Counted from the first letter of the stretch, positions 4,659-39,058 are shown. The stretch: DNA of 64,000 nucleotides from Candidatus Omnitrophota bacterium (GCA_028716565.1 JAQUPL010000001.1:19545-83544), one strand, 5' to 3'. Numbers and translations: made by a program. Notes: generated by a model from the letters alone, not told the origin.

Positions 4659-5839
4659 CCCATCACAAAAAAATATTATACCTTGATTGCCCGAGCGGGA
4701 TAAGCGGCGATATGTTCCTGGGGTCGCTCATAGATTGCGGCCTCGATATCAGGCGCCTCGCCTCGCAGCTGCGCAAGATTAAGATAGGCGTATATAAATT
4801 GGCGGCGCGCAAAGTCTCTCGCGCCGGCGTATCAGGCGTCAAATTCGACGTCATATATAAAAAGCACCGTGGGCACGAGCATACTGATGACAAGACATTC
4901 AAGGGCATCGCGAAGGCGATAAATTCATCAGGCCTCTCAAGCCGGGTCAAAGAAACATCCGTCGCGGTATTTACCAATCTCGCGAAAGCGGAGAGCAGGG
5001 CCCACGGGATCCCGGTTGGGAAGGTGCATTTCCACGAGGTCGGAGATATAGATTCCGTCGTGGATATAGTCGGCGCCTGCGTCGCTCTGGAGGAGATGGG
5101 AATAGATGAGGTTTATTCTTCGCGCCTCACTGTCGCCAATCCCGCTCCGGCGACCGCTTACCTGTTGCAGGGGATAGATATCTCCGTCGCCGTCTCGCCT
5201 TTTGAATTGGCCACACCCACAGGCGCCGCGCTCCTTAAGACATTTTCAAGATCACAGATCGATATACCGGCAATGAAGGTCCTCCGGGCCGGGTTCGGCG
5301 CCGGAAGCCGCGAGATCCCGGGCCGGCCGAACCTGCTCAAGGCGATAATAGGCGAGAGAAGGACAAACGGCGATGCGGATATCGTCACGGTATTGGAGAC
5401 CAACATCGATGATATGAACACCCAGGTCTACGGGTATCTTATCGACAGGCTCTTTGAGGCGGGGGCGCTGGATGTTTATATCACGCCTGCGATAATGAAA
5501 AAATCGCGGCCCGCCTGCGTATTGACGGTCCTCTCCGGGCCCTCGACGGCCGGGGTTCTCTCGGGGATCATCTTCGAAGAGACGTCCACATTCGGCATCA
5601 GGCGGCATAACGCCGAACGGCTGAAACTTGAACGTAAAATAGTTGAAGTAAAGACAAAATATGGTAATATAAAGGTGAAGGCGGGCTTCTACAAGGACTC
5701 GCTTAATATCTGTTCTCCGGAATACGAAGATTGCAAAAGGATCGCGGGGCTCAAAAAGGTTCCTTTTTCGGCCGTTAGGCGCGAGGCCGAGGCCGCAGCG
5801 CGCAGGAACATAAAAGGGGAGAAGCGGGGATTTGCTTAA
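4655..5839 (+). CDS. larC: nickel insertion protein LarC (DUF111; pyridinium-3,5-bisthiocarboxylate mononucleotide nickel chelatase)
   Basis: The N-terminus KILYLDCPSGISGDMFLGSLIDCGLD is the characteristic LarC/DUF111 start. Length is 394 aa. Confidence 0.85.
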   Translation: MTHHKKILYLDCPSGISGDMFLGSLIDCGLDIRRLASQLRKIKIGVYKLAARKVSRAGVSGVKFDVIYKKHRGHEHTDDKTFKGIAKAINSSGLSSRVKETSVAVFTNLAKAESRAHGIPVGKVHFHEVGDIDSVVDIVGACVALEEMGIDEVYSSRLTVANPAPATAYLLQGIDISVAVSPFELATPTGAALLKTFSRSQIDIPAMKVLRAGFGAGSREIPGRPNLLKAIIGERRTNGDADIVTVLETNIDDMNTQVYGYLIDRLFEAGALDVYITPAIMKKSRPACVLTVLSGPSTAGVLSGIIFEETSTFGIRRHNAERLKLERKIVEVKTKYGNIKVKAGFYKDSLNICSPEYEDCKRIAGLKKVPFSAVRREAEAAARRNIKGEKRGFA

Positions 5840-7541
5840 TAAGAGCAGGCTCATAGCCGAATACGTCAGGTCCATAGGGATCCTGGAAGAATCCCAGGTC
5901 AAGAACGTCCTTAAGTCACAGGTCGAATCAGGCGGCCGTCTCTCCGACATCCTCACCGGAATAGGTTTTTTAAAGATAGAGCAGCTCAGGGACCTCATCG
6001 TGCAGGAATTCTCCCTCGCCCGTTCCCCGATCTTCGACATGGAGATACCATTCGATGTGCTCCAGAAGGTAAAACCGAACATCGCCTACCGGCACAGGAT
6101 GGTGCCTATTAAATACGCGGACGACGTGCTTACGGTCGCCACCGATGATCCCATAAATCTCCTCGCGCAGGATAATCTCGAAGACTTAACCGGGTGTAAA
6201 TTAAATTTTGTCCTGACCTCGGAGACCAATCTTTCGATCGCGCTAGAAAAACATTACGGGGGCAGCAAGAACATCCTCGATGCGGTCGCGCAGAAAAAGG
6301 ATTCGGAGATAGCGGTATCTTTCAAGGGAGCGGCCGGAGAGGTCGCCAAGGAAGAGGAGAAAGAGGAAGCCCCGATAATAAAACTGGTCACGCAGATAAT
6401 CGCCGAGGCCGTAAAGAACCGTGCCTCGGATATCCATGTCGAGCCGCTCGAAGATAAATTCCGCATACGGTACAGGATAGACGGCGTCTTGCACGAAGTG
6501 CCGGGCCCGCCCAAGCAGCTGCAGCCGTCTATCATAAGCCGCCTGAAGATCATGGCCGGTATGAATATAGCGGAGAAGAGGTTGCCCCAGGACGGCAGGA
6601 TAAGGATCCATGGCGCGGGAAAGGACCTCGACCTGCGTGTTTCCACGCTCCCTGCTCTTTATGGTGAAAGCGTGGTCATGAGGATCCTCGATAAATCGAG
6701 CTTCATGCTGGGCCTTAAGGAATTGGGATTTCTCCATGGGGACGCGGACACGTTTGAAAGGCTGATACATCTCCCTTACGGGATGTTGCTTATAACCGGT
6801 CCCACCGGCAGCGGCAAAACGACGACGTTATACGCCTCGCTTAGCTATATCAATAAGCCGAACAAAAAATTAATAACGATCGAGGACCCGGTCGAATACC
6901 AGATCTCAGGGATAAACCAGGTCCACGTCAAGCCTTCGATCGGCCTGACTTTCGCTTCCGGCCTCAGGACGATGCTGAGGCAGGCGCCCGACGTCATAAT
7001 GGTCGGCGAGATACGCGATTTCGAGACGGCGTCTATCGCGATACAGGCGGCCCTGACCGGGCATCTCCTCTTCAGCACGCTCCATACCAACGACGCTGCC
7101 GGCGCTTTTACGCGCCTGATAGATATGGGCGTAAAATCGTATCTGGTGAGCTCTACGGTGCAGGCGGTCATGGCCCAGCGCCTCGTCAGGAAGATCTGCG
7201 ACAACTGCAGGGAAAACTATCAACCGAGCCTAGAGGAATTATATGTGCTTGGTTACAAACAGGACGATCCGAAAGCAAGCGAGATAAAATTATGGCGCGG
7301 GCACGGCTGCAAGAACTGCAATTATACGGGCTACCGGGGAAGGATAGGCATTTTCGAGCTTCTTATCAATACCGACGAAATAAGGGAGATGATCATAAAG
7401 AGGCTGCCTTCTCCCGAGATCAGGGACGCGGCCCGGAAGCACGGCATGAAACTCCTGCGCGAGGACGGCCTCTCGAAAGCGCTGGAGGGCATAACCACTA
7501 TATCTGAGGTCGTGCGCATAACGCACGGTTACGAGGAATAA
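5832..7541 (+). CDS. gspE: type II secretion / type IV pilus assembly ATPase (GspE/PilB family), paralog 1
   Basis: T2SSE_N-like N-domain, Walker A GPTGSGKTTT, Asp box, Walker B DVIMVGEIRD, His box LTGHLLFSTLHTNDAAGA and a tetracysteine zinc motif (CDNC...CKNC). Apparent TTG start overlaps the larC end by 8 nt. Confidence 0.9.
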   Translation: MLNKSRLIAEYVRSIGILEESQVKNVLKSQVESGGRLSDILTGIGFLKIEQLRDLIVQEFSLARSPIFDMEIPFDVLQKVKPNIAYRHRMVPIKYADDVLTVATDDPINLLAQDNLEDLTGCKLNFVLTSETNLSIALEKHYGGSKNILDAVAQKKDSEIAVSFKGAAGEVAKEEEKEEAPIIKLVTQIIAEAVKNRASDIHVEPLEDKFRIRYRIDGVLHEVPGPPKQLQPSIISRLKIMAGMNIAEKRLPQDGRIRIHGAGKDLDLRVSTLPALYGESVVMRILDKSSFMLGLKELGFLHGDADTFERLIHLPYGMLLITGPTGSGKTTTLYASLSYINKPNKKLITIEDPVEYQISGINQVHVKPSIGLTFASGLRTMLRQAPDVIMVGEIRDFETASIAIQAALTGHLLFSTLHTNDAAGAFTRLIDMGVKSYLVSSTVQAVMAQRLVRKICDNCRENYQPSLEELYVLGYKQDDPKASEIKLWRGHGCKNCNYTGYRGRIGIFELLINTDEIREMIIKRLPSPEIRDAARKHGMKLLREDGLSKALEGITTISEVVRITHGYEE

Positions 7542-7542
7542 A

Positions 7543-9279
7543 ATGGCTTCGGAAAAAGATCAACAGTCTAAACAGGAAAAATTCAAGAAGATAGGCCAGA
7601 TGCTTCTCGAGAAAGGCCTTATAAATGACCATCAATTGGAACAGGCCCTCGAGGAACAGAAACTGACGGGAAAACTCCTGGGCCGGATCTTGATCGATAT
7701 GGGGCTGGTCAAAGAGGAGGATATCCTCCAGGTCCTCGGCGCGCGCTCAGGCTTCTCGGTAGCAAGGCTTAAGGGTACGAAGATCCCGAAGGAGGTCATC
7801 GACAAGGTCCCGGCCTCGGTCGCCAAGATATATACTATCATTCCCGTCGCCATCGACGGTAACCAGCTCACCGTCGCTATCGCCGATCCGCTGAATGTGG
7901 CTGCCTTCGACGACCTGCGGTTTACCCTCGGGATGAACATCAAGGGCGTCGTAGCCAGTGATGAGGAGATAAAAGAGGAGATACAGAAATATTACGGCGC
8001 CGAGGGCGAGACGATACAGGATGTCCTGGGCGTATTCGGCGAAAAGATGGAACTCCTCCCGGTCGGAGAAGAAGCGACGGATATTTCCACGCTGCAGGAG
8101 CTCGCTTCCCGCGCCCCGGTCATAAAATTATTGAACATGATATTACTGCAGGGAGTCAAAGAGAAGGCCTCGGACATACATTTTGAGCCGTTCGAATCGG
8201 ATTACAGGATAAGATACAGGGTAGACGGCGTCCTTTATGAGGTGGCGCGGCCCCCGAAGAACTTGAGCCTCGGACTTTCGTCGAGGATAAAGGTCATGGC
8301 GAACCTCGATATAGCCGAACGAAGGCTTCCCCAGGACGGGCGCATCATGGTCACGATAGAAGGAAAGAGCGTCGACCTCAGGATCTCGACATTGCCGACG
8401 ATTTTCGGAGAGAGCGTCGTCATGAGGGTGCTCGACAGGACTACTGTCAGCCTTTCGATCGACGATGTGGGGATGCTCGAGGATACAAAGAAGAAGATAC
8501 GCGCCCTGATCATCAAGCCCAACGGGATACTCCTAGCTACCGGGCCGACAGGCTGCGGCAAAACGACCACTTTGTACGGCTGTATGAAGGAGATAAACAA
8601 GATAGAATATAAGGTCATCACGACCGAGGATCCCGTCGAGTACGACCTTAAAGGCGTAATACAGGTGCCGATAAACGCCAAGATCGGCCTCACCTTCGCG
8701 GCATCGCTGCGCCACATCTTAAGGCAGGACCCCGATATAATCATGGTCGGCGAGATCCGCGACGCCGAAACCGCCCAGATAGCCATCCAGGCCTCGCTCA
8801 CCGGACATCTCGTCTTCTCGACCATACACACCAATGACGCGGCAGGGACCATAACCAGGCTTATAGATATGGGCGTCGAGCCGTTCCTGGTGACCTCGAC
8901 GCTCGAGGCTGTACTTGCCCAACGCCTAGTCAGGAAGATATGCCAGTTCTGCAAAGAGGAATATACGCCCGAGCCGGAGATGCTATCCGACCTGGGGATA
9001 AAGCCTGAAGTCGCGAAGGGGAAGAAGTTCTACAGGGGAGCCGGCTGCGTAAAATGCAATAATTCCGGATATAAAGGAAGGACCGGCATATTTGAGCTCC
9101 TTATCCTTAACGACAAGCTCAGGGCACTGATAATAGAGAAGGCCCATACCGCATTGATAAAAGAGGCCGCCATAGAGGCCGGCATGAAGACCCTTCTTAA
9201 CGACGGCCTTGAAAAGGTATTCCTCGGCGCCACTACGCTCGAGGAGGTCCTTAAAGAAGCCCAGACTGCGATCCTTTGA
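7543..9279 (+). CDS. gspE: type II secretion / type IV pilus assembly ATPase (GspE/PilB family), paralog 2, with MshE-N-like N-terminus
   Basis: Walker A GPTGCGKTTT, Walker B DIIMVGEIRD, His box LTGHLVFSTIHTNDAAGT and a zinc motif CQFC...CVKC. The N-terminus (KIGQMLLEKGLINDHQLEQALEEQ then LGRILIDMGLVKEEDILQVL) fits the tandem MshEN c-di-GMP-binding pattern. Confidence 0.9.
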   Translation: MASEKDQQSKQEKFKKIGQMLLEKGLINDHQLEQALEEQKLTGKLLGRILIDMGLVKEEDILQVLGARSGFSVARLKGTKIPKEVIDKVPASVAKIYTIIPVAIDGNQLTVAIADPLNVAAFDDLRFTLGMNIKGVVASDEEIKEEIQKYYGAEGETIQDVLGVFGEKMELLPVGEEATDISTLQELASRAPVIKLLNMILLQGVKEKASDIHFEPFESDYRIRYRVDGVLYEVARPPKNLSLGLSSRIKVMANLDIAERRLPQDGRIMVTIEGKSVDLRISTLPTIFGESVVMRVLDRTTVSLSIDDVGMLEDTKKKIRALIIKPNGILLATGPTGCGKTTTLYGCMKEINKIEYKVITTEDPVEYDLKGVIQVPINAKIGLTFAASLRHILRQDPDIIMVGEIRDAETAQIAIQASLTGHLVFSTIHTNDAAGTITRLIDMGVEPFLVTSTLEAVLAQRLVRKICQFCKEEYTPEPEMLSDLGIKPEVAKGKKFYRGAGCVKCNNSGYKGRTGIFELLILNDKLRALIIEKAHTALIKEAAIEAGMKTLLNDGLEKVFLGATTLEEVLKEAQTAIL

Positions 9280-9334
9280 CTTTCGGTAACTTATAGGGTA
9301 TATTTATATTATAGACGAGAGAGGAACTACAACT

Positions 9335-10603
9335 ATGGCAATATTCAATTACGTGGCTATCGACAAGGACGGGAAAGAGATAAAAGGCAGGCTAGAGGTC
9401 AACTCTAACGATGAGGTGGTGACCCAGCTCCGCCAAAAGGGGCTTTATCCGGTAAGCGTAAGCGAGGAGAAGTCGAAAACGCCCGCCGCCGGCGCGGTTA
9501 AAGACCTGCGTGAAAGCCCTGCCCCGGCTAATAAAGTATCTATACTGAATCTCTCGTTGGGAGGGGTCAGCCAGAAGCAGGTGACCGTTTTTACGAGGCA
9601 GCTGGCCACGCTTATCGGGTCAGGCCTTCCTCTCGTGCGCGCGCTTTACGTCCTTGAGCGCCAGGAGAAAGGGGCCCTGAAAACGACCATCCGCGGCCTG
9701 GCCGAACAGGTAGAGGGCGGCAGTTCTTTTTCCGAAGCGCTCTCGAAATATCCGAAGGCTTTCCCTCCGCTTTATGTAAATACGGTCAAGGCCGGCGAGA
9801 CCGGCGGCGTCCTTGAAGTCGTCCTGACGCGCCTGGCTGAATTCGCCGAGAAGTCACAGAAGCTGAACAGCAGGATAAAGGCCGCCCTTATATATCCCGC
9901 CCTTGTCCTGACGTTGGCGCTTTCGGTCTTATTTTTCCTGATAACTTTCATAGTCCCGAAATTCATGCAGATATTCAAAGAGATGAACGTCGAACTGCCG
10001 ACCCCGACAAAGGTGCTCCTCTTCGTCAGCAGTTTGATGAAAGACAGATGGTTTGTCGGGCTCGGGATCATTATTTTTGTCATCGTGACCTATACGATAT
10101 TGTCCAAGGTAGCGGCGACGAGGCTGGTGATCGACAGGATAAAATTGGAGCTTCCGGTAATGGGGCCGTTGATCCGCAGGATAGCCATCGCGCGTTTCTC
10201 GAGGACTCTGGGCACTTTGCTTTCGAGCGGCGTCCCCATCCTCCAGTCGCTTATGGTCGCAAAAGATACGACCGGTAACGAGGTCATGGCGCGCTCGATA
10301 GTCCATGTCCACGACAGCGTACGCGAGGGAGAGACTGTGGCCAAGCCGCTTTTAAAGGCCGGCTTGTTCCCGGCGATGGCCGTCAACATGATATCTGTCG
10401 GCGAGGAGACCGGCGCTCTCGACCAGATGCTCCTCAAGATCGCGGACGTCTATGATGAAGAGGTGGATGTCACGGTAACGGGCCTTATGTCGTTATTGGA
10501 ACCTTTCCTTATTATCGGCATGGGCCTGATCGTCGGTTTTATAGTAGTTTCGATGTTTATGCCGCTCTTCAACCTCATAACCGCATTGGGAGGGAATGGT
10601 TAA
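9335..10603 (+). CDS. gspF: type II secretion / type IV pilus platform protein (GspF/PilC family)
   Basis: Two repeated GspF domains, three TM segments and the typical RxLxTLLxSGxPLxxAL motifs (RQLATLIGSGLPLVRAL and RTLGTLLSSGVPILQSL). Length is 422 aa. Confidence 0.9.
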   Translation: MAIFNYVAIDKDGKEIKGRLEVNSNDEVVTQLRQKGLYPVSVSEEKSKTPAAGAVKDLRESPAPANKVSILNLSLGGVSQKQVTVFTRQLATLIGSGLPLVRALYVLERQEKGALKTTIRGLAEQVEGGSSFSEALSKYPKAFPPLYVNTVKAGETGGVLEVVLTRLAEFAEKSQKLNSRIKAALIYPALVLTLALSVLFFLITFIVPKFMQIFKEMNVELPTPTKVLLFVSSLMKDRWFVGLGIIIFVIVTYTILSKVAATRLVIDRIKLELPVMGPLIRRIAIARFSRTLGTLLSSGVPILQSLMVAKDTTGNEVMARSIVHVHDSVREGETVAKPLLKAGLFPAMAVNMISVGEETGALDQMLLKIADVYDEEVDVTVTGLMSLLEPFLIIGMGLIVGFIVVSMFMPLFNLITALGGNG

Positions 10604-11072
10604 AATGGAAAAACGTAAAGGCGGGTTTACGATAATAGAGTTGATAGTCGTCATGACGATCATCCTTATATTGGCTGGCCTTATAACCGGCGCCGCGCAG
10701 AAGGCGAAGCAGCAGGCTATGGTGGCCAAGGCTAGGTCGATGATCGCCGGCCTGGAGACGTCGCTTGGGATGTTCCAGGCGGATACGGGGATATATCCCG
10801 CCACCGGCAATTTGTACTCGAACCTTACCAGTTCCGCCGGCCTTACGACCGCCCAGGCTGCGAATTGGGCCGGGCCTTACATGAATTTCCAGACGAATGA
10901 AGTAAATACCGTCGCCGGCACTATACTCGACCCCTGGAACAACGCCTATCATTACGCTAATACCGGCGCGGCCGCGCACGGTTTCGATCATTACATTGAT
11001 ATCTGGTCCAACGGCCCTAACAAAGTGGACAATAGCGGCGCGGGCGACGATGTAACCAACTGGAGAAGATAG
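10596..11072 (+). CDS. gspG: major pseudopilin, GspG-type (prepilin N-terminal cleavage/methylation motif)
   Basis: KGGFTIIELIVVMTIILILAGLI (G|FTxxE prepilin motif) followed by GspG-type globular domain motifs (DTGIYP, DPWNNAYHY, NGPNK...GDDVTNW). Confidence 0.85.
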   Translation: MVKMEKRKGGFTIIELIVVMTIILILAGLITGAAQKAKQQAMVAKARSMIAGLETSLGMFQADTGIYPATGNLYSNLTSSAGLTTAQAANWAGPYMNFQTNEVNTVAGTILDPWNNAYHYANTGAAAHGFDHYIDIWSNGPNKVDNSGAGDDVTNWRR

Positions 11073-11084
11073 CTCCTTAACATC

Positions 11085-11438
11085 ATGAGAAAAGGTTTTA
11101 CGTTAATCGAGATAGTCATATCGCTCGCGATACTCGCTGTAGGGTTGGTGGGCATATTGTCGCTTTTTCCGATAGGTTTTGACTCGGCTAGGCGCTCGAT
11201 GAATTCCACGCAGGTCGCGATCTTTGCCAATGAGAAGCTCGAAGAACTGAGGAACACCGGATTTCCCTCTTTAGGCGTCACGAGCGGGGCCTTCTCCGAC
11301 GCGTCTTATGCGTGGTCGCAGAGCGTTTCAACCGTAGACGCGATCGACGCATTAAGGAAGGTGGATCTGACGGTAACCTGGGAATACAGGAGCCGCCCTT
11401 ACCAGCAGGTATTCACGACCTATGTGGCGACCAGATAG
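11085..11438 (+). CDS. minor pseudopilin, GspI-like (prepilin-type N-terminal methylation motif)
   Basis: MRKGFTLIEIVISLAILAVGLVGILSLFP. Length is 117 aa, typical of GspI. Confidence 0.65.
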   Translation: MRKGFTLIEIVISLAILAVGLVGILSLFPIGFDSARRSMNSTQVAIFANEKLEELRNTGFPSLGVTSGAFSDASYAWSQSVSTVDAIDALRKVDLTVTWEYRSRPYQQVFTTYVATR

Positions 11439-15173: not shown

Positions 15174-15183
15174 GGATAACAAT

Positions 15184-16053: not shown

Positions 16054-16113
16054 TAAAATTACCAGGAAGCGGAGTTGTTTTTATGTCAGCTACCCTCGCG
16101 GGCATACGAGAAA

Positions 16114-18681: not shown

Positions 18682-18700
18682 AAGGAGAAAAAAGAATAAA

Positions 18701-19780: not shown

Positions 19781-19817
19781 GCGCCCATCGAATTTTTTGC
19801 TTTTTGAAAAGAAATAA

Positions 19818-19846
19818 TTGACAACATTTGCTTAATCCTATAAAAT
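19818..19846 (+). promoter_or_regulatory. putative sigma70-type promoter upstream of the PilM-PilN fusion gene
   Basis: TTGACA (19818-19823), a 17-nt spacer and TAAAAT (19841-19846) in one of the few real intergenic gaps (19781-19858). Confidence 0.45.
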
Positions 19847-19858
19847 ATACGCAACCAT

Positions 19859-21508
19859 ATGGGAAAACGTGCTCTAGGGATCGATATAGGCGCGGGCTCG
19901 GTAAAACTCGTAGAGCTGGAAAAGACGGTTGAGGGCATTCAGCTCATCCGGGCGAAATTTTTTGATTTGACCCAATATGCCGACCAGGAAAAAAGGGACA
20001 CCCTGATCAGGGAAGGCATAGAGGGGTTGTTGAGAACAGAAAAGATAAAGAGCGGCAGGCTCGCGCTCTCCCTCTCGGGCCAGTCGGTATTCATCCGCTT
20101 CCTCAAGCTCCCCAAGATCCAGCAAGGCAAGATAGACAAGATAATAAAATACGAAGCACAGCAGCAGATCCCTTTTCCCCTCGATAAGATAAGCTGGGAC
20201 CACCAGATCTTCCGCTCCGGCGCGGGCCCGGAAGAGGACGTCCTTTTCGTCGCCGCGAAAAAAGAGATCGTCGAAACTACGCTTTCGCACGTAGCGAGGA
20301 CCAACCTGGACATAGAGTTCGTCGATGTCAGCCCGCTGGCCCTCCTTAACGCCATAACTTACAATGAGCCCCTCGGCAAGGGACTGATCCTTGATATCGG
20401 CGCCAAGGCGACCAATCTTATCGTCATCTCGGACAAGGGGTTCTGGGTCCGTTCGATACTTATCGCCGGCGACGAGATGACCCATGCTATCGCCTCAAAG
20501 TTAAATATACCTTTCGACAAGGCGGAAGAGCTTAAGCGCAAAGAGGGGATGGTGGTCGCATCAGACAGCCTTGTTCCCTCGAACATCACCCCGGCCGGCA
20601 AAGACCTCGTTAATGCCCTGAACCCGGTCGTCTCCGACCTGATATCTTCGATAGTCCAGTCGATGGAATTTTACAGGACCAAACATGCCCGCGATACCGC
20701 CTTCAACGAGATCATATTATCGGGCGGCGGCTCAAAGCTCAAGGGCATAGAGGATTTCCTGGCGAAGGGGCTCGGCATGCAGATAAGGCGCGCCAACCTG
20801 GGCCAGAAGATAAAATGCCCGTCCAACCTCAGGGTCGATATAGATTTCCAGACACGCTTCGGCTCTTCGATCGGCCTGGCCCTGCGCCTGCTCCAGAGAT
20901 GCCCGACCAATATAGACCTGTTGCCGGTCGAGAGGAAAGAGGAAAGAGATTTCAAGAAAGAAAAATTCTGGATCATCTCTGCGGGCCTCCTTATCGCCGT
21001 GATACCGCTCACGATAGGGTATAATATCTGGTTCCAGACGTCGACCCTAAGGAAGGAAGTGGCCTTCCTGGATTCGCTTTTGTCGGATTACGAGAACATC
21101 AACAAGGAAATAGCCAAGCTTAAGGAAGATATAAAGAACAGCGAGGCAAGGCTGGAACCTTTTGAAAATCTGGCCATAAAGAAAAGCCTCTCGCTTGAGG
21201 CCATATTGGGGATAAGGAAGCTCCTACCCGAAGAGACCTGGTTGACGTCGGTCTCCAAGGAGAAGGACTTCTTCTCGCTGGAAGGCAGGACGGCCTCGAG
21301 CCTCCTGACCATAAACGATTTCAAGAACAGGCTCGCATCCTCGCCGTTATTCGATTCGGTAGAGATAATATACGCGAGCCTGCCCCGCCAGACCGAAGAG
21401 GGCGCGGGACAATTCAGGGATTTTTCCATAAAGTTCAGGTTCAAGGGGACCGGCGCGGCTGCGGCGGCCCCGAAGGGCGAGAAGGACGAAACGAAAGGCA
21501 ATAAATAG
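19859..21508 (+). CDS. PilM-PilN fusion (GspL-like): actin-like ATPase-fold cytoplasmic domain + TM + periplasmic coiled-coil domain
   Basis: PilM N-terminus (LGIDIGAGSVKLVELEK) and actin-like fold, then a TM segment (FWIISAGLLIAVIPLTIGYNIWF), then a PilN/GspL-like coiled coil. Length is 549 aa. Confidence 0.75.
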   Translation: MGKRALGIDIGAGSVKLVELEKTVEGIQLIRAKFFDLTQYADQEKRDTLIREGIEGLLRTEKIKSGRLALSLSGQSVFIRFLKLPKIQQGKIDKIIKYEAQQQIPFPLDKISWDHQIFRSGAGPEEDVLFVAAKKEIVETTLSHVARTNLDIEFVDVSPLALLNAITYNEPLGKGLILDIGAKATNLIVISDKGFWVRSILIAGDEMTHAIASKLNIPFDKAEELKRKEGMVVASDSLVPSNITPAGKDLVNALNPVVSDLISSIVQSMEFYRTKHARDTAFNEIILSGGGSKLKGIEDFLAKGLGMQIRRANLGQKIKCPSNLRVDIDFQTRFGSSIGLALRLLQRCPTNIDLLPVERKEERDFKKEKFWIISAGLLIAVIPLTIGYNIWFQTSTLRKEVAFLDSLLSDYENINKEIAKLKEDIKNSEARLEPFENLAIKKSLSLEAILGIRKLLPEETWLTSVSKEKDFFSLEGRTASSLLTINDFKNRLASSPLFDSVEIIYASLPRQTEEGAGQFRDFSIKFRFKGTGAAAAAPKGEKDETKGNK

Positions 21509-21511
21509 AAG

Positions 21512-22273
21512 ATGCCAAAAGGCATGAACGAGTCGTTGACGACTAAGATCTCCTTGGGAGCGGTCATACTTGTCTCATTTCTTTTTTTAGGGATAACCGT
21601 GTATGACAGGTTGAGGATCGAAGGGGCTGTCGTGCAGAAGCAGGAGCAGCTCAAGGTCTACAAAAACCAGGGCCTCGGTTTCCTGAGCAGCGAAAAGAAC
21701 CGCCTTGAGAGGCAGCTCAAGGCCATGCGGGGAGCCGACAAGGAGATAAGCGGCATGCTCTTCTCTAAACCGTCCTCCCGGATGGTTAAGGAGGTCGGGG
21801 ATCCCCTTAAATTCAAGGAGGAGTTGTACAAGGTCCAGAATAAGATAAAAGAGGACGGCGCTTCCATAAATTTCCAATTCCCGTTCTGGCTGGGTTTCGA
21901 GAGGTACCAACACGATATACCGAATCCGGCGGACCTTCCGTTCAGGGTAAAGCAGCTCGACATAATAAACGAGATCGGCAGCCTTGCCCTGGCCTCGAAG
22001 GTGCCGGAGATCTCGACGATCGAATTCCTTGAGATCAGGAAAATAACGGCGGACAACAAGGAAATCCTTTTCATGGAATTTCCCGTCAGGGTGGTCATTA
22101 AGTGCGGTAACGAGAGCCTGACCAATTTTATGTATAAGCTGAGCGTCGCGGATATGCCTTTCAGGGTGGATTCGTTTAAAATAAAAGTTTCCGCAGACGA
22201 AAGCGCGGCCGAGGGTGACATGACCGGCGAGTTGGTCATAGTCGCTGCCGTATTGCCGGCGGAGAAGATATGA
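21512..22273 (+). CDS. GspM/PilO-like inner-membrane assembly protein
   Basis: N-terminal TM (ISLGAVILVSFLFLGITVY), a coiled-coil segment and a C-terminal alpha/beta domain. It sits between the GspL-like gene and the GspC/PilP-like gene. Confidence 0.5.
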   Translation: MPKGMNESLTTKISLGAVILVSFLFLGITVYDRLRIEGAVVQKQEQLKVYKNQGLGFLSSEKNRLERQLKAMRGADKEISGMLFSKPSSRMVKEVGDPLKFKEELYKVQNKIKEDGASINFQFPFWLGFERYQHDIPNPADLPFRVKQLDIINEIGSLALASKVPEISTIEFLEIRKITADNKEILFMEFPVRVVIKCGNESLTNFMYKLSVADMPFRVDSFKIKVSADESAAEGDMTGELVIVAAVLPAEKI

Positions 22274-22947: not shown

Positions 22948-22952
22948 TATAA

Positions 22953-24080
22953 ATGAGTATGACCAATGAGGTTAAAAGAACAGCGGGTAGGTTCTTTGTT
23001 TGCATCTTTTTGGCTTTTGATTCGTTCTTTATTATCTCATTAGGTAATGCTTTTTGCGCCAGGGTTTACGCCGCTTCCGATGCTGATATAGCCGGGGACT
23101 CAGTCGAGGCGAGGATAATAGCACAGGACCTGGCCAAAGAGAAAAAAGTCGAACAAAAATCCCTCATTAAAGACCTCTTCGATCAAGCCAAGAGCGAATA
23201 CGACGCTAAAAATTACGAAACGGCGCAGCGGATTTTCGAGAGGATAGTCCAGCTGGACCCCAAGAATAAACAGGCCGTCCATTATGTCGAGATGTGCAAA
23301 GAGGGCATAGTAAAGACCGTCCCCGATACGATAACAGGCTCTATGATAAAGCGCGGCAAAGCGAATTACGCGAAAAAAGAATATTCCGCAGCGGTAGGTG
23401 ATTTTGAAAGCGCGCTCGCCGCGAACCCCAGTGACGCCGAAGCCCGGGATTGGTTGATCAAGGCGAGGCAGGCCGAGGGGTTAGTCGCGAGGGAAAAGGC
23501 TACCAAGGAAGAGCGCAAGTATGTCGTAAAGGACAGGCACGTAACGAACGAGGAGAAGGATACATCCGAGCAGAAGGCACTGCTCGACGTGGATAGAGGA
23601 TGGCTGCCTCCGGAGAAGACCGGCAGGGAAGAGTTGCAGGTTGAAGAGGTGATACCTGAGTCGGAAAAGGCCGACATGGAAGCGAGGAAGAAGCTCGAGG
23701 AAAAGATGGCGAGTGTTATCGTCCCGGCCATATCGGTTACCGACGCCGACGTCCAGGACCTTATCCGACAGTTGACTGAGATGACGGGAGTAACTATCGT
23801 CATCGACGAGAAGGAGCTGTCCGCCCTCACCAGAGAGCAGCCGCTGAAGATCACGATCAGCACGGCTGCGCCTATGCCGTTGCTCGATATACTGGGTATC
23901 GCGTTCAAGACTACGCAACTCGCTTATAAGGTCGAGCCGAATTACGTTTATGTATCGAGCAGAGAGAATATAATGAGAGAAGGCCTTGTCACGAGGACTT
24001 ACAAGCTCAAATACGGCGAACGCAAAACTCGCGCAGTCAAATTAACAGAGTTTGAAACCAAGTCGGCAGAGGCGAAATGA
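22953..24080 (+). CDS. TPR-repeat protein with C-terminal secretin N0-like (Secretin_N) domain; stand-alone secretin N-terminal module
   Basis: Signal/TM segment, TPR-like repeats (AKNYETAQRIFERIVQLDPKN; KKEYSAAVGDFESALAANPSD), then a segment (ISVTDADVQDLIRQLTEMTGVTIVIDEKELS...KITISTAAPMPLLDILGIAFKTTQLAYKVEPNYVYVSS) resembling PilQ/GspD N0 domains, at nt about 23709-23967. Confidence 0.55.
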   Translation: MSMTNEVKRTAGRFFVCIFLAFDSFFIISLGNAFCARVYAASDADIAGDSVEARIIAQDLAKEKKVEQKSLIKDLFDQAKSEYDAKNYETAQRIFERIVQLDPKNKQAVHYVEMCKEGIVKTVPDTITGSMIKRGKANYAKKEYSAAVGDFESALAANPSDAEARDWLIKARQAEGLVAREKATKEERKYVVKDRHVTNEEKDTSEQKALLDVDRGWLPPEKTGREELQVEEVIPESEKADMEARKKLEEKMASVIVPAISVTDADVQDLIRQLTEMTGVTIVIDEKELSALTREQPLKITISTAAPMPLLDILGIAFKTTQLAYKVEPNYVYVSSRENIMREGLVTRTYKLKYGERKTRAVKLTEFETKSAEAK

Positions 24081-25198
24081 AGAAAAAGTTTATCGCGGGA
24101 GCGGTAATAATTTGTTTGACGATCCCCCAGATCGCGCTCTTTGCGGCTGATGACGGCAGCCTCAATATCAAAGATTATCTCGAGCAAAGCCTGCCTGCCC
24201 AGGAGGGGAGAAAGATAACCTATAATAACGGCACGAGGCTCCTGACCGTTACCGATACGAAAGACAACCAGGAACTCATCAGGAGTTTAATAAAGGGGTT
24301 TGAGGTCGGTCCCAAACAGGTGATGATCGAGACCAGGTTCGTGGAAGTGTCCGTCACCGACCTGGACGAGTTGGGTATAGAATGGGATTTCTTCCATCCC
24401 GGCAACGCCAACGACAAAAACAGCGGATTTACCATAGGCGCTCCTGTGGGTACGCAGTATCAGGGCCTGCGCTGGAATAATGATATAGCCTCCACGTTCC
24501 CCGTAGTGGGAAATTTCGCCGGCCAGGTCATGATGTTCAAAGTTTTGGCCAACGGCGAGGCCTATATAGCGAATCTCAGATTTTTAGAGCAACAGGGTAA
24601 GGCCAATCTCCTTTCCGCTCCCAAGGTTACTGCGATCTCCGGCCAGATGGCGAACATCCAGGTGGTAAGGACATATCCTTACGTATCTGATTTTACGCTT
24701 GAGAACATAGGGACGGCTGAGTTCCCTATCTGGAGTTACAAATTGTCCCTTGCCGAAAAACCGGTAGGCATATTCCTTGAAGCGACCCCTTATGTCACCG
24801 AAGGGTCGAATACCATAACTTTAGACCTGCATCCGGAGGTGAGTGTCCTGCGGTCGCAAGTGGCCATCTCTAACCTAAGTACGAGCGGCGAGACGGGGCA
24901 GCTGGGTAATGTAACCTCCGCAACAAACGTAAAACTCATACCGACTGACCTGGGCTGGCCTGTTGTGGACGTAAGGACCACCCAGACGAGCGTTTCGGTA
25001 GACAGCGGTGCGACGATAGTGCTGGGCGGGCTTATTAAGGACAGTGAGACGATAACGAGGAGAAAGATCCCGGTCCTGGGGGATATACCTTTGTTAGGCC
25101 AGGCTTTCCGGTATGATTACAAAAACCAGACCAAGACGAACCTGCTTATATTTATTACCGCGAGCATTATCGACGCGAGAGGCGAGGTCATAAGATGA
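24077..25198 (+). CDS. short secretin (GspD/PilQ family C-terminal secretin domain), paralog 1
   Basis: Signal peptide and an N1/N3-like segment (LTVTDTKDNQELIRSLI...VMIETRFVEVSVTDLDELGIEW). The secretin domain carries the signature VLGDIPLLGQAFRYDYKNQTKTNLLIFITASII. Length is 373 aa. Confidence 0.85.
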   Translation: MKKKFIAGAVIICLTIPQIALFAADDGSLNIKDYLEQSLPAQEGRKITYNNGTRLLTVTDTKDNQELIRSLIKGFEVGPKQVMIETRFVEVSVTDLDELGIEWDFFHPGNANDKNSGFTIGAPVGTQYQGLRWNNDIASTFPVVGNFAGQVMMFKVLANGEAYIANLRFLEQQGKANLLSAPKVTAISGQMANIQVVRTYPYVSDFTLENIGTAEFPIWSYKLSLAEKPVGIFLEATPYVTEGSNTITLDLHPEVSVLRSQVAISNLSTSGETGQLGNVTSATNVKLIPTDLGWPVVDVRTTQTSVSVDSGATIVLGGLIKDSETITRRKIPVLGDIPLLGQAFRYDYKNQTKTNLLIFITASIIDARGEVIR

Positions 25199-26298
25199 AG
25201 AATAAATACGGCGTTTCTTTGCCGCAGGTGATATTGTGTTCGGCGGTGATCCTCCTTTCGTTCGCGTCCGGGCAGGTCTTTGCGGCGGATGAGCCTGCCG
25301 CGGGAGAGGCGGCAGGCATCGAGCAATATCTGCAGGACGCCCTGCCTGAGAACCCGGAAAGGAAGGTTGTTTATGACTCATTGACCGGTGTGCTTACCGT
25401 TACCGATACCCCGACTAACCAGGCGATGGCCAAGGACCTGATAAGTCTATGGGATACCGGGTCCACGCAGGTAAGGATACAGGCGAGATTTGTGGAGATC
25501 CAGGTCACTGATATAGAGGAGTTAGGGATCGAATGGCAGATCTTTAAGGCGCAAAGATATCCCATGGATAAGAACGGCCACTGGAGCAACTTTGGGACCA
25601 GTGTTTCTAGCGGGACATTAAGCGAGGATCAGGCTAACGCCGCTTTCTTCGGAACGGCAAACGAGACTTCGGGTCTGGGTTTGACTATCGGAAAGTTCAC
25701 GAACGCGGGGGATATGTATAGGGCATATATAAAGGCGCTTATCGAGCAGGGGAAAGCCAGTCTCTTGTCTTCTCCTTCGGTGACCACTATCTCCGGCCAG
25801 ATGGCGAACATCCAGGTAGCTAACATAGTCCCTTACGCCTCGGATTTCACGAGGACTAACATCGGCACCGCCGATTTCCCGGTCATGGTCGAGATATACA
25901 AAGTGGCGGAAAAGGTGACCGGCATATCGCTTGAGGTGACGCCTTCGGTGGGAGGCGACAGTAAGGTGGTCACGATGGATATACATCCCGAGGTCAGCAT
26001 CCTGGTCGACCAGATCCCGATCTCTTCTTCGGACGATTTCCCCGCAAACTTAGGATACCCGGTCATCGACACGAGGACAACGCAGACGTCGGTAGTCGTC
26101 AAGAGCGGAGAGACGGTCGTACTGGGCGGATTAATAAGGGAAGATGAAAGAACTACGAAAAGGAAGATCCCGGTCCTGGGCGACATACCACTCCTGGGCA
26201 GACTATTTACTACCGACCACACCGACAAGTCAAAGAAGAACCTGTTGATCTTCCTGACAGCCACGATATTGGACTCAAGAGGAGAGCCGGTGCTATGA
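25195..26298 (+). CDS. short secretin (GspD/PilQ family), paralog 2
   Basis: Same architecture as paralog 1 (LTVTDTPTNQAMAKDLI...VRIQARFVEIQVTDIEELGIEW...VLGDIPLLGRLFTTDHTDKSKKNLLIFLTATIL). It overlaps paralog 1 by 4 nt. Confidence 0.85.
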   Translation: MKNKYGVSLPQVILCSAVILLSFASGQVFAADEPAAGEAAGIEQYLQDALPENPERKVVYDSLTGVLTVTDTPTNQAMAKDLISLWDTGSTQVRIQARFVEIQVTDIEELGIEWQIFKAQRYPMDKNGHWSNFGTSVSSGTLSEDQANAAFFGTANETSGLGLTIGKFTNAGDMYRAYIKALIEQGKASLLSSPSVTTISGQMANIQVANIVPYASDFTRTNIGTADFPVMVEIYKVAEKVTGISLEVTPSVGGDSKVVTMDIHPEVSILVDQIPISSSDDFPANLGYPVIDTRTTQTSVVVKSGETVVLGGLIREDERTTKRKIPVLGDIPLLGRLFTTDHTDKSKKNLLIFLTATILDSRGEPVL

Positions 26299-26627
26299 AA
26301 CGCGCAATATTGTTGATATCCGTTCTTTTATGCGCTATTATCTTATCGTCAGCCGTGATGGCCCAGTACCTTCCCACTGCCTCTTCTACGACTGCAAAGA
26401 GCACTAAACCGAAGGACGTTGTCCTCACTACCTCGGACATAAAAGATTCCTATAAGGTCATAGGGATCGTTTCGGTCCGTGGCGGCGAAGTGAACCTCGA
26501 CGCCTTAAACAGCAAACTTAAGGACGCGGGAAAGGAATTAGGGGCCGATTACATCATAGGCATACAGTATTTTACCTACAGCGGCTACGTGTATGGCTAT
26601 GGGACGGCTGTAAAGATCAAGGAATAG
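26295..26627 (+). CDS. small secreted YbjQ/UPF0145 (DUF74)-like protein
   Basis: Signal peptide (MKRAILLISVLLCAIILSSAVMA) and a C-terminal segment (LGADYIIGIQYFTYSGYVYGYGTAVKIK) resembling the YbjQ family. Translationally coupled to secretin 2. Confidence 0.45.
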   Translation: MKRAILLISVLLCAIILSSAVMAQYLPTASSTTAKSTKPKDVVLTTSDIKDSYKVIGIVSVRGGEVNLDALNSKLKDAGKELGADYIIGIQYFTYSGYVYGYGTAVKIKE

Positions 26628-36524: not shown

Positions 36525-36527
36525 TCA

Positions 36528-36770: not shown

Positions 36771-36774
36771 TTTG

Positions 36775-39014: not shown

Positions 39015-39058
39015 GCAATCGGTTCGCTCGGCCTTACTTTATTACTCGAAACAAATCT

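Follow-up and report, generated by a model that had tools for sequence, protein, structure and literature searches.

Which kind of machine is encoded by a compact gene block that joins pilins of the type II secretion system (T2SS) to an inner-membrane platform of the PilM/PilN/PilO type? The question is raised by a MAG of Candidatus Omnitrophota, in which a stretch of 64,000 nucleotides (hereafter the window) carries such a mixture of G, I, J and K pilins and PilM/N/O-type components, as an earlier annotation made from the bases alone (the sequence-only reading) had rightly noted. At a probability of roughly 60%, the locus encodes a filament machine that resembles a type IVa pilus and is conserved in the Omnitrophota, in a PVC-style variant. 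Its most likely function would be that of a putative glycan-binding adhesive pilus that sticks to other cells. It would be a known kind of machine, in a version with two motors, a three-protein outer-membrane pore and very large putative sugar-binding tips.

The block spans positions 5832-26627 of the + strand and holds 17 genes, all co-directional, in the order E1-E2-F-G-I-J-K1-beta-helix protein (BH)-K2-TPR protein (L368)-PilM/N fusion (MN)-PilO-like (O)-PilP-like (P225)-TPR/N0 protein (TPRN)-secretin (SecA)-secretin (SecB)-110 aa protein (Y110). All 17 genes listed in the sequence-only reading were found, in the same order and over exactly this span, and the count of 19 in its title was an error, as no gap fits more. 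Gaps longer than 25 nt occur at E2/F (55 nt) and L368/MN (78 nt), with a third only if K2 starts at 16114; because the intergenic gaps are few and short, there is no room for further genes. E1 and E2 are separated by 1 nt, and overlaps of the 4-nt ATGA type are found at J/K1, O/P, TPRN/SecA, SecA/SecB and SecB/Y110. Pfam, NCBIfam, PDB-profile and fold searches, a check that had been proposed earlier, gave domain or family calls across all 17 genes and confirmed nearly every label, the exceptions being a PA14 domain on both giant proteins and a lipoprotein, which were not upheld as such, and the GspC/PilP-like and YbjQ-like labels, which are weak.

The first two genes encode assembly ATPases of the PilB/GspE type, both with T2SSE and MshEN domains, in agreement with the two motors proposed earlier. 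E1 (5832-7541, +; 569 aa) scores 472.7 bits on T2SSE and 52 bits on MshEN in Pfam, and 631 bits on PilB (TIGR02538) and 625 bits on GspE in NCBIfam, both below cutoff; its MshEN c-di-GMP motif is degenerate (22 bits on the motif model NF053729, cutoff 38), and the PDB structure it matches best is Geobacter PilB (5zfr). E2 (7543-9279, +; 578 aa; T2SSE 467.9 bits) reaches 648 bits on GspE (TIGR02533), above the cutoff of 630, and 632 bits on PilB, and carries an intact tandem MshEN c-di-GMP-binding motif (66.8 bits on NF053729, above the same cutoff), with Geobacter PilB (6olj/5tsg) as its best PDB match. The PilB equivalog cutoff of 675 is missed by both (631-632 bits), and Geobacter and Myxococcus PilB lead the PDB matches of both. 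Judged by NCBIfam bits and PDB matches, each ATPase scores at least as well on PilB as on GspE, and the plain GspE label that both had been given is not supported in that form. E1 and E2 are 46% identical and form one orthologous clade each, which points to an ancient duplication with retention of both copies. In a regular-expression search for the c-di-GMP motif, strict or relaxed, nearly all E2 orthologs match and only one E1 ortholog does. The two are homologs of hexameric ATPases of the PilB/GspE type, both catalytically intact, and of the pair E2 alone has kept the c-di-GMP-binding MshEN motif.

The platform protein F (9335-10603, +; 422 aa) is of the PilC/GspF type, with two T2SSF repeats (207 bits); it falls just below the GspF cutoff in NCBIfam (TIGR02120, 409.8 bits, cutoff 424) and scores 393 bits on the Thermus-type PilC model. 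Neither PilT nor a prepilin peptidase (A24/PilD) was found among the ORFs of at least 150 aa in the 64-kb window, as the sequence-only reading had stated. This result covers the coding ORFs of the + strand, by direct scan or from precomputed Pfam assignments, and extends to all but three minus-strand ORFs (36525-37091, 37107-37733 and 63280-63927; 188-215 aa), which are too short for a PilT of about 350 aa. The prepilin peptidase gene is often located elsewhere in the genome (PMC6668835). In more distant Omnitrophota with the same synteny, E1 and E2 flank a protein that reaches 426-453 bits on pilT_fam (cutoff 319), giving these orthologous loci the order E1-PilT-E2-F. The clade of the window has lost pilT from the locus, and the missing retraction ATPase, earlier taken as a feature of the design, is better described as a lineage-specific loss. 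Because a true PilT is encoded in the locus of these distant members, the machine is considered to be the type IVa-pilus-like system of the phylum rather than an exoprotein T2SS.

The major subunit G (10596-11072, +; the start may be 10605) is a GspG-type (pseudo)pilin with the cleavage motif G|FTIIE, an N_methyl match and 51.6 bits on T2SSG. Structures of PulG/EpsG/GspG cover its entire globular domain (5wda, E 9e-7), and those of PilA/PilE align with the N-terminal helix only; a PilA/PilE-type identity for G was ruled out on the basis of this GspG-type domain. Two minor pilins with N_methyl matches follow. The I-like pilin (11085-11438, +; 117 aa; G|FTLIE) weakly matches GspI, XpsI, PilV and Verru_Chthon cassette B (E ~1e-7), and the J-like pilin (11422-12198, +; 258 aa; G|LTLVE) has orthologues with T2SSJ Pfam matches. 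The GspG, GspI and GspJ labels assigned earlier agree with the domain match of G and the G|F/LTxxE N-termini of I and J. Class III signal peptides are present in G, I and J, with Glu5, and in K1 and K2, in the GspK-type form that lacks Glu5. No GspH is encoded in the main locus, and within the GspH/I/J/K set all equivalog cutoffs are missed, I-like, J-like and K-fold proteins being present. In J, a hypervariable loop lies at about residues 168-225: against a MAG with 99.6% overall identity, 84 of 105 differences fall within 11750-12250 and differences elsewhere are sparse. A loop that separates near-identical strains would fit what is expected of an exposed structure.

The two tip pilins K1 and K2 are giant GspK-type proteins, three times the usual size of GspK. 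K1 (12195-15173, +; 992 aa) consists of a GspK-like N-terminal domain, a PA14 domain and one or more ConA-like beta-sandwich domains, and its fold matches are to XcpK, to PA14 adhesin lectins and to lectins or glucanases of ConA-like fold, from which K1 may be expected to bind sugars. K2 (16075-18681 or 16114-18681, +; 868 or 855 aa) matches GspK (NF037980, E 1.4e-7) and has homologues with T2SSK, HHH_3 and PilX_N matches, which NCBI and JGI already name GspK/PulK. PA14, earlier attributed to both giants, is present in K1 and absent from K2. Structure prediction of the giants had also been proposed, and the AF2 model of K2 (pLDDT 71.7) has as its sole significant fold matches XcpK (9a1f_T, E 1.4e-7, TMt 0.66), XcpX (5vtm_X) and GspK (3ci0_K). 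The GspK-type N-termini and GspK folds of both giants thus speak for the pseudopilin identity suggested earlier. The full-length C-terminal architecture of K1/K2 (a WL[DN]SCP...KLG[YF]WDNF core, PA14, ConA-like) was found only in Omnitrophota.

Each giant is followed by a smaller exported protein. BH (15184-16053, +; 289 aa) is a secreted right-handed beta-helix protein (Beta_helix PF13229, 26.8 bits) with a signal peptide visible in its translation. It is paired with K1 in 15 of 18 non-redundant main-locus copies that have a K1-type gene. The exceptions are L019, which lacks BH, and L013 and L020, which stop where K1 does or close to it, so that BH directly follows K1 in all main-locus copies reaching past K1 except L019. 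L368 (18674-19780, +; 368 aa) has BamD/pilotin-like TPR repeats, detected with a family profile (consensus TPR E 2e-12, BamD E 6e-6) and giving no match in a single-sequence Pfam search. Of the earlier label of TPR lipoprotein, the repeats were recovered and the lipoprotein was not, as the signal peptide lacks a cysteine. K2-L368 tandem pairs, evidently co-duplicated, occur in three loci (L003, L006, L009), and relatives carry tandem K2-L368 copies together with stand-alone H-I-J-K satellite cassettes. K1-BH and K2-L368 behave as modules, in which each giant has its own accessory protein. Gene order suggests that BH, L368, P225 and Y110 are putative partners of the machine.

Downstream of the tip genes, a PilM-PilN fusion (19859-21508, +; 549 aa) of GspL-like architecture scores 118 bits on PilM_2 and 31 bits on PilN. 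Its PilM part exceeds the pilM cutoff (TIGR01175, 142 bits, cutoff 133) and its PilN part passes the Pfam cutoff, in support of the fusion recognised earlier. The PilO-like protein (21512-22273, +; 253 aa) is a homolog of Akkermansia Amuc_1100 (family E 1.3e-5), and its family profile matches Amuc_1100 structures (6lad/6kny, E 5e-7 over ~200 residues) and PilO structures (5uvr/2rjz) at E 0.14-0.2. P225 (22270-22947, +; 225 aa) is a candidate PilP/GspC-like periplasmic linker; its matches are weak (GspC_delta E 1.4e-4, PilP E 4e-4), leaving the earlier GspC/PilP-like label at E ~1e-4, and its family profile matched nothing in the PDB. Its place after the PilO-like gene and ahead of the secretin genes is conserved. 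The three proteins are predicted to form the inner-membrane alignment complex, with P225 as the probable PilP; GspL, GspM and GspC-PDZ are absent from the main locus.

The secretin is split and duplicated, as the sequence-only reading had recognised. TPRN (22953-24080, +; 375 aa), with TPR families and a weak STN match, is its detached N-terminal part, consisting of TPR repeats and an N0/STN-like domain. It matches positions 210-370 of 805 in the Amuc_1098 family and aligns with residues 103-314 of an unsplit 706-aa secretin (L030), and its L029 orthologue matches the N-terminal end of the PilQ model (positions 6-79 of 428), consistent with an N0-type domain. SecA (24077-25198, +; 373 aa; Secretin 134.8 bits) holds the N3 and secretin domains, matching positions 297-595 of the GspD model and residues 376-700 of the same unsplit secretin, and SecB (25195-26298, +; 367 aa; Secretin 147.4 bits) is a second short paralog. 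The two are 44% identical and form separate orthologous clades, with SecB always second in gene order; as with the ATPases, this indicates an old duplication of which both copies were kept. TPRN and SecA together are colinear with the unsplit 706-711-aa secretins of other Omnitrophota and match the TPR-secretin architecture of Akkermansia PilQ. The outer-membrane conduit is a PVC-type TPR-secretin cut into a TPR+N0 protein and two N3+pore paralogs. The last gene, Y110 (26295-26627, +; 110 aa), encodes a small exported protein and follows the second secretin gene in nine loci. It matches SeleniumBinding (E 4e-4), and its family profile reaches structures of the YbjQ and selenium-binding types with E no better than 0.2-0.6, such that the earlier YbjQ-like label, and the likeness to YbjQ/DUF1471 proteins in general, is weak.

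A search for this gene order in relatives, another check that had been suggested, showed that dozens of Omnitrophota genomes carry the locus at the same place, with larB/larC on one side and polA on the other, two loci (L001, L002) being from the population of the window itself. Orthologues in the pilT-less clade are 50-95% identical and keep the same order. Both distinctive and conserved are the two ATPases, the PilM-PilN fusion, the Amuc_1100-like PilO, the split and duplicated secretin, the GspG-type major pilin and the giant GspK-fold tips. The locus is no oddity of one genome; the phylum as a whole has inherited it vertically as its pilus locus. Type IVa pili have already been reported in nearly all Omnitrophota by published TXSScan surveys (PMC10066038).

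In the proposed mechanism, a prepilin peptidase encoded elsewhere would mature the pilins, and an I-J-K complex would prime and cap a GspG-type filament, with K1 or K2 as alternative caps at the tip. The PA14 and ConA-like lectin modules of K1 may attach to glycans on the surface of a host, of prey or of a substrate, and BH and L368 may serve as K-specific partners. E2 would couple extension to c-di-GMP through its MshEN domain, and E1 would be a second, c-di-GMP-independent motor. SecA and SecB may form a joint channel that is broad enough to let tip subunits of ~100 kDa through. In relatives, the filament would be retracted by the locus-encoded PilT; in the clade of the window, retraction may be absent, slow and PilT-independent, or driven by a PilT encoded elsewhere.

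Other explanations must be weighed against this one. The locus could encode a T2SS-like secretion machine, in which a short, I-J-K-capped GspG pseudopilus would work like a piston and drive folded exoproteins out through the secretin; candidate cargo would include the signal-peptide-bearing BH, and the target recognised by the lectin modules of the giants would be the cell envelope or glycosylated cargo. This reading, which is judged unlikely though it deserves serious attention, draws on the GspG/PulG match across the whole globular domain of G, the T2SS-like sequences of the I, J and K minor pilins with GspK folds in K1 and K2, the GspE equivalog score of E2, and the top scores of F and the secretins on the GspF and GspD models. 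The locus of the window's clade also lacks pilT and encodes a secreted beta-helix protein with a pectate lyase fold, and T2SS-like loci have been discussed as predation machinery of the Omnitrophota. However, PilT lies between the two ATPases in orthologous loci and is found in no characterised T2SS, and of the Gsp equivalog cutoffs only that of GspE is passed. The alignment complex is of the PilM/PilN/PilO type, with PilM above its cutoff, and the main locus lacks GspL, GspM, GspC-PDZ and GspH. In addition, the presence of several tip cassettes that can replace one another, and of a hypervariable loop in J, is more in keeping with an exposed adhesin than with an internal piston. The earlier view that this is not a canonical exoprotein T2SS is thus supported by PilT in orthologous loci and the PilM/N/O-type platform, and the adhesive surface filament suggested earlier is the best reading, given the same PilT genes and the PA14 and ConA-like lectin folds of K1.

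A DNA-uptake (competence) pilus, whose tip complex would bind extracellular DNA, is highly improbable. DNA uptake in several bacteria is carried out by type IVa-pilus-like machines with GspK/PilX-like tip pilins, the K2 homologues have helix-hairpin-helix (HHH_3) Pfam matches, and the locus adjoins polA. These motifs are, however, intrinsic to the GspK alpha-domain, the polA adjacency is conserved housekeeping synteny, the extra domains of K1 are lectin-type rather than DNA-binding, and comEA, comEC and dprA were not found among the ORFs searched in the 64-kb window. Almost no weight can be given to the possibility that the loss of pilT has left this clade with a remnant locus that is decaying or inactive. 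Although pilT is precisely missing from the 1-nt space between E1 and E2 and more distant orthologous loci do have it, none of the 17 ORFs is disrupted and the coupling between them is tight, gene order and sequence are conserved within the pilT-less clade at the identities given above, and the tip genes have diversified and been duplicated inside it. Furthermore, PilT loss is common among working type IV filament systems (PMC6668835).

The adhesive pilus proposed here shares parts with several known systems. With the T2SS (GspC-M; XcpGHIJK pseudopilus), it has in common a GspG-type major subunit, a GspI/J/K-type tip with a K that lacks Glu5, GspE- and GspF-like scores, a GspL-like PilM+PilN fusion and, in the window, the absence of PilT; it differs in its threefold larger K subunits with lectin modules, its two ATPases, its lack of GspH, GspL, GspM and GspC-PDZ, and the PilT of orthologous loci. 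The MSHA pilus of Vibrio, an MshE-dependent, c-di-GMP-activated type IVa pilus, resembles it in the intact MshEN motif of E2, a TPR protein in the locus and the lack of a PilT encoded there; MSHA reportedly uses a PilT encoded elsewhere (PMC9815625). The short secretins also have substantial scores on MshL (142-189 bits). Unlike in MSHA, the MshL (cutoff 250) and MshE equivalog cutoffs are missed, the pilins are Gsp-like rather than MshA-like, and there are two ATPases. The Verru_Chthon cassette proteins A-D (TIGR02596-02600) likewise combine huge K-type pilin-like proteins with small I-/J-like pilins in stand-alone, multi-copy cassettes, and K1, I and J weakly match proteins A, B and C. These matches do not extend beyond the pilin segment at the N-terminus and, at E 1e-5 to 1e-8, stay far short of the cutoffs, and the C-terminal architecture of K1/K2 is found full-length in Omnitrophota only.

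The type IVa pilus of Myxococcus, Pseudomonas and Geobacter (PilB-PilT-PilC, PilMNOPQ, FimU-PilVWX-PilY1) shares with the Omnitrophota machine PilB-type ATPases, a PilC platform, a PilM/N/O/(P) alignment complex with a secretin, and a priming minor-pilin set with a large tip adhesin. The E1-PilT-...-PilC order of the orthologous loci resembles the pilB-pilT-pilC order of Myxococcus and Geobacter, and Myxococcus has several alternative minor-pilin clusters per genome, as do Omnitrophota. In contrast to this pilus, Omnitrophota keep a second PilB paralog phylum-wide, fuse PilM to PilN, use a GspG-type major pilin and a split, duplicated secretin, and have the adhesin module grafted onto a GspK/PilX-type pilin in place of a separate PilY1; the locus of the window's clade also lacks pilT. 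The Amuc_1098-Amuc_1102 cluster of Akkermansia muciniphila, from the PVC superphylum, contains a homologous PilM-like fusion, an Amuc_1100 homolog and a TPR-secretin, in the gene order MN, O, (P), secretin. Scores on the Amuc_1101, Amuc_1100 and Amuc_1098 families are 274, 24.7 and 42-157 bits (cutoffs 650, 180 and 750), with TPRN, SecA and SecB all matching Amuc_1098, and the Omnitrophota proteins are best regarded as homologous to these families rather than as equivalog members. A single TPR-secretin of 805-907 aa in Akkermansia corresponds to three genes in Omnitrophota, whose locus adds ATPases, a platform and pilins to this core.

An adhesive type IVa-like pilus is the best-supported reading of the locus at 5832-26627 (+ strand), with a probability of about 0.6. 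ORF calling gives 17 genes in this interval rather than the 19 counted in the sequence-only reading, in the order E1-E2-F-G-I-J-K1-BH-K2-L368-MN-O253-P225-TPRN-SecA-SecB-Y110. Just two gaps exceed 25 nt, one of 55 nt at E2/F and one of 78 nt at L368/MN (a third is added if K2 starts at 16114), so there is no room for extra genes. Neighbouring genes overlap by 4 nt at J/K1, O/P, TPRN/SecA, SecA/SecB and SecB/Y110. A promoter and terminator scan returned consensus matches only, the two best putative promoter sites (9276-9304 and 19818-19846) lying in the two largest intergenic gaps.

The locus is flanked by larC upstream and polA downstream. Immediately upstream, larB (AIRC) and larC (Ni insertion) occupy 3909-5839 (+), with larC overlapping the start of E1 by 8 nt; in two distant relatives (L056 and L057) larC is absent from this position and larB abuts E1. 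Neither larA nor larE was seen in the window. The other + strand coding ORFs of at least 150 aa, scanned or taken from precomputed annotation, are housekeeping genes, among which lie ORFs of 675, 358 and 199 aa (41486-43513, 54225-55301 and 58079-58678, all +) without a Pfam family at E <= 0.001. An exact look-up of the protein encoded at 38984-40384 gave no recorded match. A Wood-Ljungdahl methyl-branch/one-carbon cluster at 43560-51126 (+), comprising formate-THF ligase, FTCD_C, FolD, DUF5981, MTHFR and a large methyltransferase/B12-binding protein, suggests an acetogenic-type metabolism in this lineage. Nearly all credible genes of the window (1-64000) are on the + strand and the cumulative GC skew climbs monotonically over 64 kb, consistent with one replichore with a strong gene strand bias.

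Scanning one genome per species yielded 50 loci, whose ORFs were searched with the 17 window proteins by BLASTP. The same gene order recurs across the Omnitrophota, as E1-E2-F-G-I-J, followed by K1-BH and/or at least one K2-L368 pair, and then by MN-O-P-TPRN-SecA-SecB-Y110-polA. Where the upstream flank is covered and larC is present, larC precedes E1, and the upstream synteny tsaD-mgtC-bactofilin-HTH-larB is likewise conserved. Given this conservation of order and flanks, the locus belongs to the vertically inherited core of the phylum and is not an island; horizontal acquisition was rejected, as the housekeeping flanks are shared across the phylum and the GC content does not stand out within the window. 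Full-length homologues of K1 are found nearly all in Omnitrophota-named records (24 proteins), with a few loci in MAGs named otherwise, such as an uncultured Planctomycetia, and two MAGs of Candidatus Omnitrophota (GCA_028714115.1 and GCA_028711645.1) have contigs encoding an identical K1.

The pilin genes encode a T2SSG major pilin (G, cleavage site G/FTIIE), two small pilins (I and J, G/FTLIE and G/LTLVE) and two giants, K1 (992 aa; KRG/VALII, no Glu5) and K2 (868 or 855 aa), both with the GspK-type N-termini that the sequence-only reading had ascribed to them. The PA14 domain it placed on the giants is found in K1 and not in K2. The AF2 models of both match GspK folds. For K2 (pLDDT 71.7, pTM 0.72), the significant fold matches are GspK proteins only, namely XcpK 9a1f_T (E 1.4e-7, TMt 0.66), XcpX 5vtm_X and ETEC GspK 3ci0_K, while K1 (pLDDT 74.9, pTM 0.74) matches XcpK and the PA14 lectins of the adhesins MpIBP, Epa1, Flo5 and RsgI in Foldseek. 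K2 homologues carry the Pfam domains T2SSK, HHH_3 and PilX_N and NCBI and JGI already call them GspK or PulK. A HMMER profile of K2 retrieved 375 clusters at E <= 1e-30 from 1.84 billion representatives, mostly of 650-1050 aa, and the family has a conserved N-terminal half and variable C-termini. K1 and K2 share a central WL[DN]SCP...KLG[YF]WDNF core and a C-terminal TPVL motif, which marks them as paralogs. The start of K2 is ambiguous (16075-16114): the longest ORF begins at a TTG at 16075 (868 aa) and one public annotation begins at 16114 (855 aa). Another public annotation splits the gene into a 774-aa protein and a spurious 43-aa minus-strand ORF, the DNA there being almost identical.

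Each giant has a partner gene. K1 is followed by BH, a 289-aa beta-helix protein with a signal peptide, in all main-locus copies extending past K1 except L019. L368 comes after the K2-type genes of 11 loci, and several main loci (L029, L030, L031 and L043) have a K2-type gene without it. Relatives thus carry K1-BH alone, K2-L368 alone, both, or K2-L368 twice. L368 (368 aa) has no Pfam/NCBIfam match as a single sequence; its family profile is TPR-/BamD-like. Of the earlier label of TPR lipoprotein, the TPR part stands and the lipoprotein part falls, since the signal peptide has no cysteine. Stand-alone tip cassettes also occur outside the main locus in the same genomes, at 8355-22181 of L022 and in L018 and L023, with shorter ones in L021, L025 and L026. 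The L022 cassette, between housekeeping genes (rpsA, tyrS), encodes a GspH-like protein, I, J, a K1-like PA14 giant and two K2-like giants (~1030 aa), each preceded by a 354-aa protein to which no family was assigned.

Variation is also seen at strain level. The window and GCA_028714115.1 (L001) are 99.6% identical overall, with sparse differences over 23 kb, and 84 of the 105 differences fall in a stretch of ~60 residues of J (11750-12250; residues ~168-225), including a 3-aa indel, the remainder of J being identical. The window's J allele is present in the other of the two MAGs (L002). Such clustering of differences is what one would expect of a tip surface that is exposed and under selection.

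The inner-membrane platform is of the Pil type. MN (549 aa) is a PilM+PilN fusion that passes TIGR01175. O253 (253 aa) matches Amuc_1100 weakly as a single sequence, and its family profile matches Amuc_1100 crystal structures at E 5e-7 over ~200 residues and PilO faintly. P225 (225 aa) had been called GspC/PilP-like, a label that does not hold beyond its position between the PilO-like gene and the secretin genes: the match is weak (E ~1e-4), and its family profile matched no solved structure. MN-O-P-secretin is therefore equivalent in order to the Amuc_1101, Amuc_1100, Amuc_1099 and Amuc_1098 families, in which the P position is presumably that of Amuc_1099. The YbjQ-like label given to Y110, an exported protein of 110 aa, did not hold beyond gene position, as its profile gave only matches at E > 0.2, to YbjQ and selenium-binding folds. 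In two relatives, one protein of 411-423 aa fills both the O and P positions (L030 7189-8424; L053 5081-6352).

The same two loci encode one unsplit TPR-secretin of 706-711 aa (L030 8493-10613; L053 6410-8545) in place of TPRN, SecA and SecB. TPRN (375 aa), with TPR and N0-like domains, matches the N-terminal third of the Amuc_1098 secretin family and aligns to residues 103-314 of the unsplit protein; SecA and SecB, short secretins of 373 and 367 aa with Secretin domain scores of 135 and 147 bits, both align to residues 376-700. The secretin is thus split and duplicated, as first proposed. TPR plus secretin is the architecture of the Akkermansia PilQ, Amuc_1098 (PMC4960237). L029 is intermediate, having a single short secretin beside a TPRN-like protein, and TPRN with two short secretins is found in the window and 13 other loci. 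In the tree, SecA and SecB form two orthologous clades with constant gene order, L043 having a separate secretin pair. Neither copy has been lost in any locus of the main two-secretin clade, which argues that both are needed. The simplest reading is that SecA and SecB would co-assemble into a single channel. In the more tentative joint reading given below, the detached TPR+N0 subunit would dock onto a barrel of these two anciently diverged pore paralogs. Secretins are described as homo-oligomers, and to our knowledge a heteromeric one has no precedent; a search of the accessible literature for heteromeric or duplicated secretins found no description, most matches concerning the hormone of that name and its receptor. 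The Omnitrophota pilus machine has repeatedly undergone fusion and fission.

E1 (569 aa) and E2 (578 aa), both on the + strand, have T2SSE and MshEN domains (Pfam/NCBIfam), in line with the two assembly-type ATPases of the initial description, and F is a T2SSF platform protein. The two ATPases are 46% identical. In a PilT-rooted neighbour-joining tree each forms a single clade with one gene from every locus, indicating an ancient duplication of which both copies were kept. Walker A and B, the Asp box, the His box and the tetracysteine motif can be read from the alignment in both, and the closest solved relatives of both are PilB of Geobacter and Myxococcus. Assigning E1 as PilB and E2 as GspE was unattainable, the model and PDB scores being too close. 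The two differ in the c-di-GMP-binding MshEN motif (NCBIfam model, cutoff 38), which E2 passes with 66.8 bits and E1 fails with 22.3 bits; by strict or relaxed motif regex, nearly every E2 orthologue matches and just one E1. From these motifs we infer that E2 may couple extension to c-di-GMP and that E1 would be a c-di-GMP-independent motor. A stand-alone GGDEF protein of 172 aa with an intact GGDEF motif is encoded at 31327-31845 (+), between coaE and rho and 4.7 kb downstream of the locus, and is a possible local source of c-di-GMP for the MshEN domain of E2.

Neither PilT nor a prepilin peptidase turned up in the window, in line with the sequence-only reading; the scan covered + strand ORFs of at least 150 aa, three minus-strand ORFs of 188-215 aa (36525-37091, 37107-37733 and 63280-63927) lying outside it. 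In distant Omnitrophota (L033, L043, L050, L054, L055, L056 and L057), E1 and E2 are separated by a gene encoding 354-383 aa, and the three copies scanned (L054, L043 and L033) score 426-453 bits on the PilT/PilU model (cutoff 319). Further syntenic E1-PilT-E2 loci surfaced in two follow-up look-ups. A dedicated retraction ATPase, which we know of in no characterised T2SS, is therefore part of the homologous machine. The locus of the window's clade lacks pilT cleanly, only 1 nt lying between E1 and E2. A query with the L033 PilT against a 5.8-billion-protein collection found PilTs of Omnitrophota by the hundred, but none that could be traced to GCA_028714115.1 or GCA_028711645.1.

Two features, PilT in orthologous loci and an alignment complex of PilM/PilN/PilO type, group the system with type IVa-like pili. 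Scores on Gsp models are nearly as high for the ATPases, F and the secretins, and G is GspG-like along its entire globular domain. The combination of a GspG-type major pilin with a PilM/N/O-type platform, noticed from the start, is borne out, and the machine is a genuine mosaic of T4aP-type and T2SS-type parts. Denise et al. (PMC6668835) describe chimeric 'generic' systems matched by both the gspE and the pilB profiles, frequent loss of PilT, and retraction that is possible in its absence. The main rival to a pilus is a piston of T2SS type that would export exoproteins such as BH. It is supported by the Gsp-like pilins and by the lack of pilT in the window's clade and weakened by the PilT of orthologous loci, by the platform of Pil type and by tip components that are interchangeable and hypervariable, and we consider it unlikely. 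A competence pilus is far less probable, and a decaying locus is the least probable of all. Identity with the T2SS-like locus upstream of Omnitrophota giant genes was rejected, as that locus lies ahead of a giant ORF and contains rcpC together with a Rotamase_2 PPIase, and the neighbours here are larC and polA with no ORF longer than 992 aa. In L055 the pilin and K genes are missing between F and the PilM/N fusion, which makes the pilin cassette a variable insert. The sequence-only description was largely correct apart from the gene count, PA14 on K2 and the lipoprotein label; its interpretation is supported in part, the mosaic character and the filament or adhesive reading being favoured. The locus is no one-off, and distant orthologous loci carry PilT.

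In the adhesive pilus, a GspG-type shaft would be primed and capped by I-J-K complexes, with K1 or K2 as alternative, lectin-bearing caps. E1 and E2 would power the filament under c-di-GMP regulation, and it would exit through the multi-gene secretin. In the window's clade, retraction may be absent, PilT-independent, or driven by a PilT encoded elsewhere. A tentative joint reading, doubtful as a whole, combines a heteromeric three-gene secretin, two non-redundant PilB-type motors (one c-di-GMP-gated, one not) and interchangeable ~100 kDa lectin-bearing GspK tips for nanobacterial host attachment, with no dedicated retraction motor in the window's clade. If true, it would describe a grappling hook with swappable tips, by which nanobacteria attach to host cells.

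Omnitrophota are ultra-small, uncultured and suspected to be parasites or predators, so an attachment apparatus would be central to their biology, and this locus, being phylum-core and syntenic, is the prime candidate for it. The lectin-type tip pilins, alternative cassettes and strain-level hypervariable loop offer testable handles on host or substrate specificity. The phylum also provides natural experiments on the role of two assembly ATPases in one machine, on whether a secretin may be modular and built from different subunits (this one phylum having fused, split and split-plus-duplicated versions), and on the combination of a T4aP-type platform with T2SS-type pseudopilins, which bears on the evolution of T2SS from pili.

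In the accessible portions of the earlier work, TXSScan T4aP calls are reported in nearly all Omnitrophota and host attachment is proposed, the highlighted clusters adjoining F-type ATPases (Seymour et al., PMC10066038). These calls very probably include the locus type of the window, though F-type ATPases are absent beside it. The T2SS-like locus upstream of giant genes has, in the portions available, a different content with rcpC and a PPIase (10.1101/2023.11.21.568195; 10.64898/2026.06.07.730766). Within the same portions of PMC10066038, 10.1101/2023.11.21.568195 and 10.64898/2026.06.07.730766, there is no description of paired ATPases flanking PilT or of a split and duplicated secretin, and the giant GspK-fold lectin pilins with their partner genes and the Amuc_1100 link are likewise undescribed.

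The sequence-level link to Akkermansia assigns its medically interesting protein Amuc_1100 to the PilO position of a pilus platform of PVC type that is widespread. The stand-alone tip cassettes resemble the Verru_Chthon cassettes of Verrucomicrobia, and they have a further likeness in Myxococcus, which has multiple minor-pilin/PilY1 clusters.
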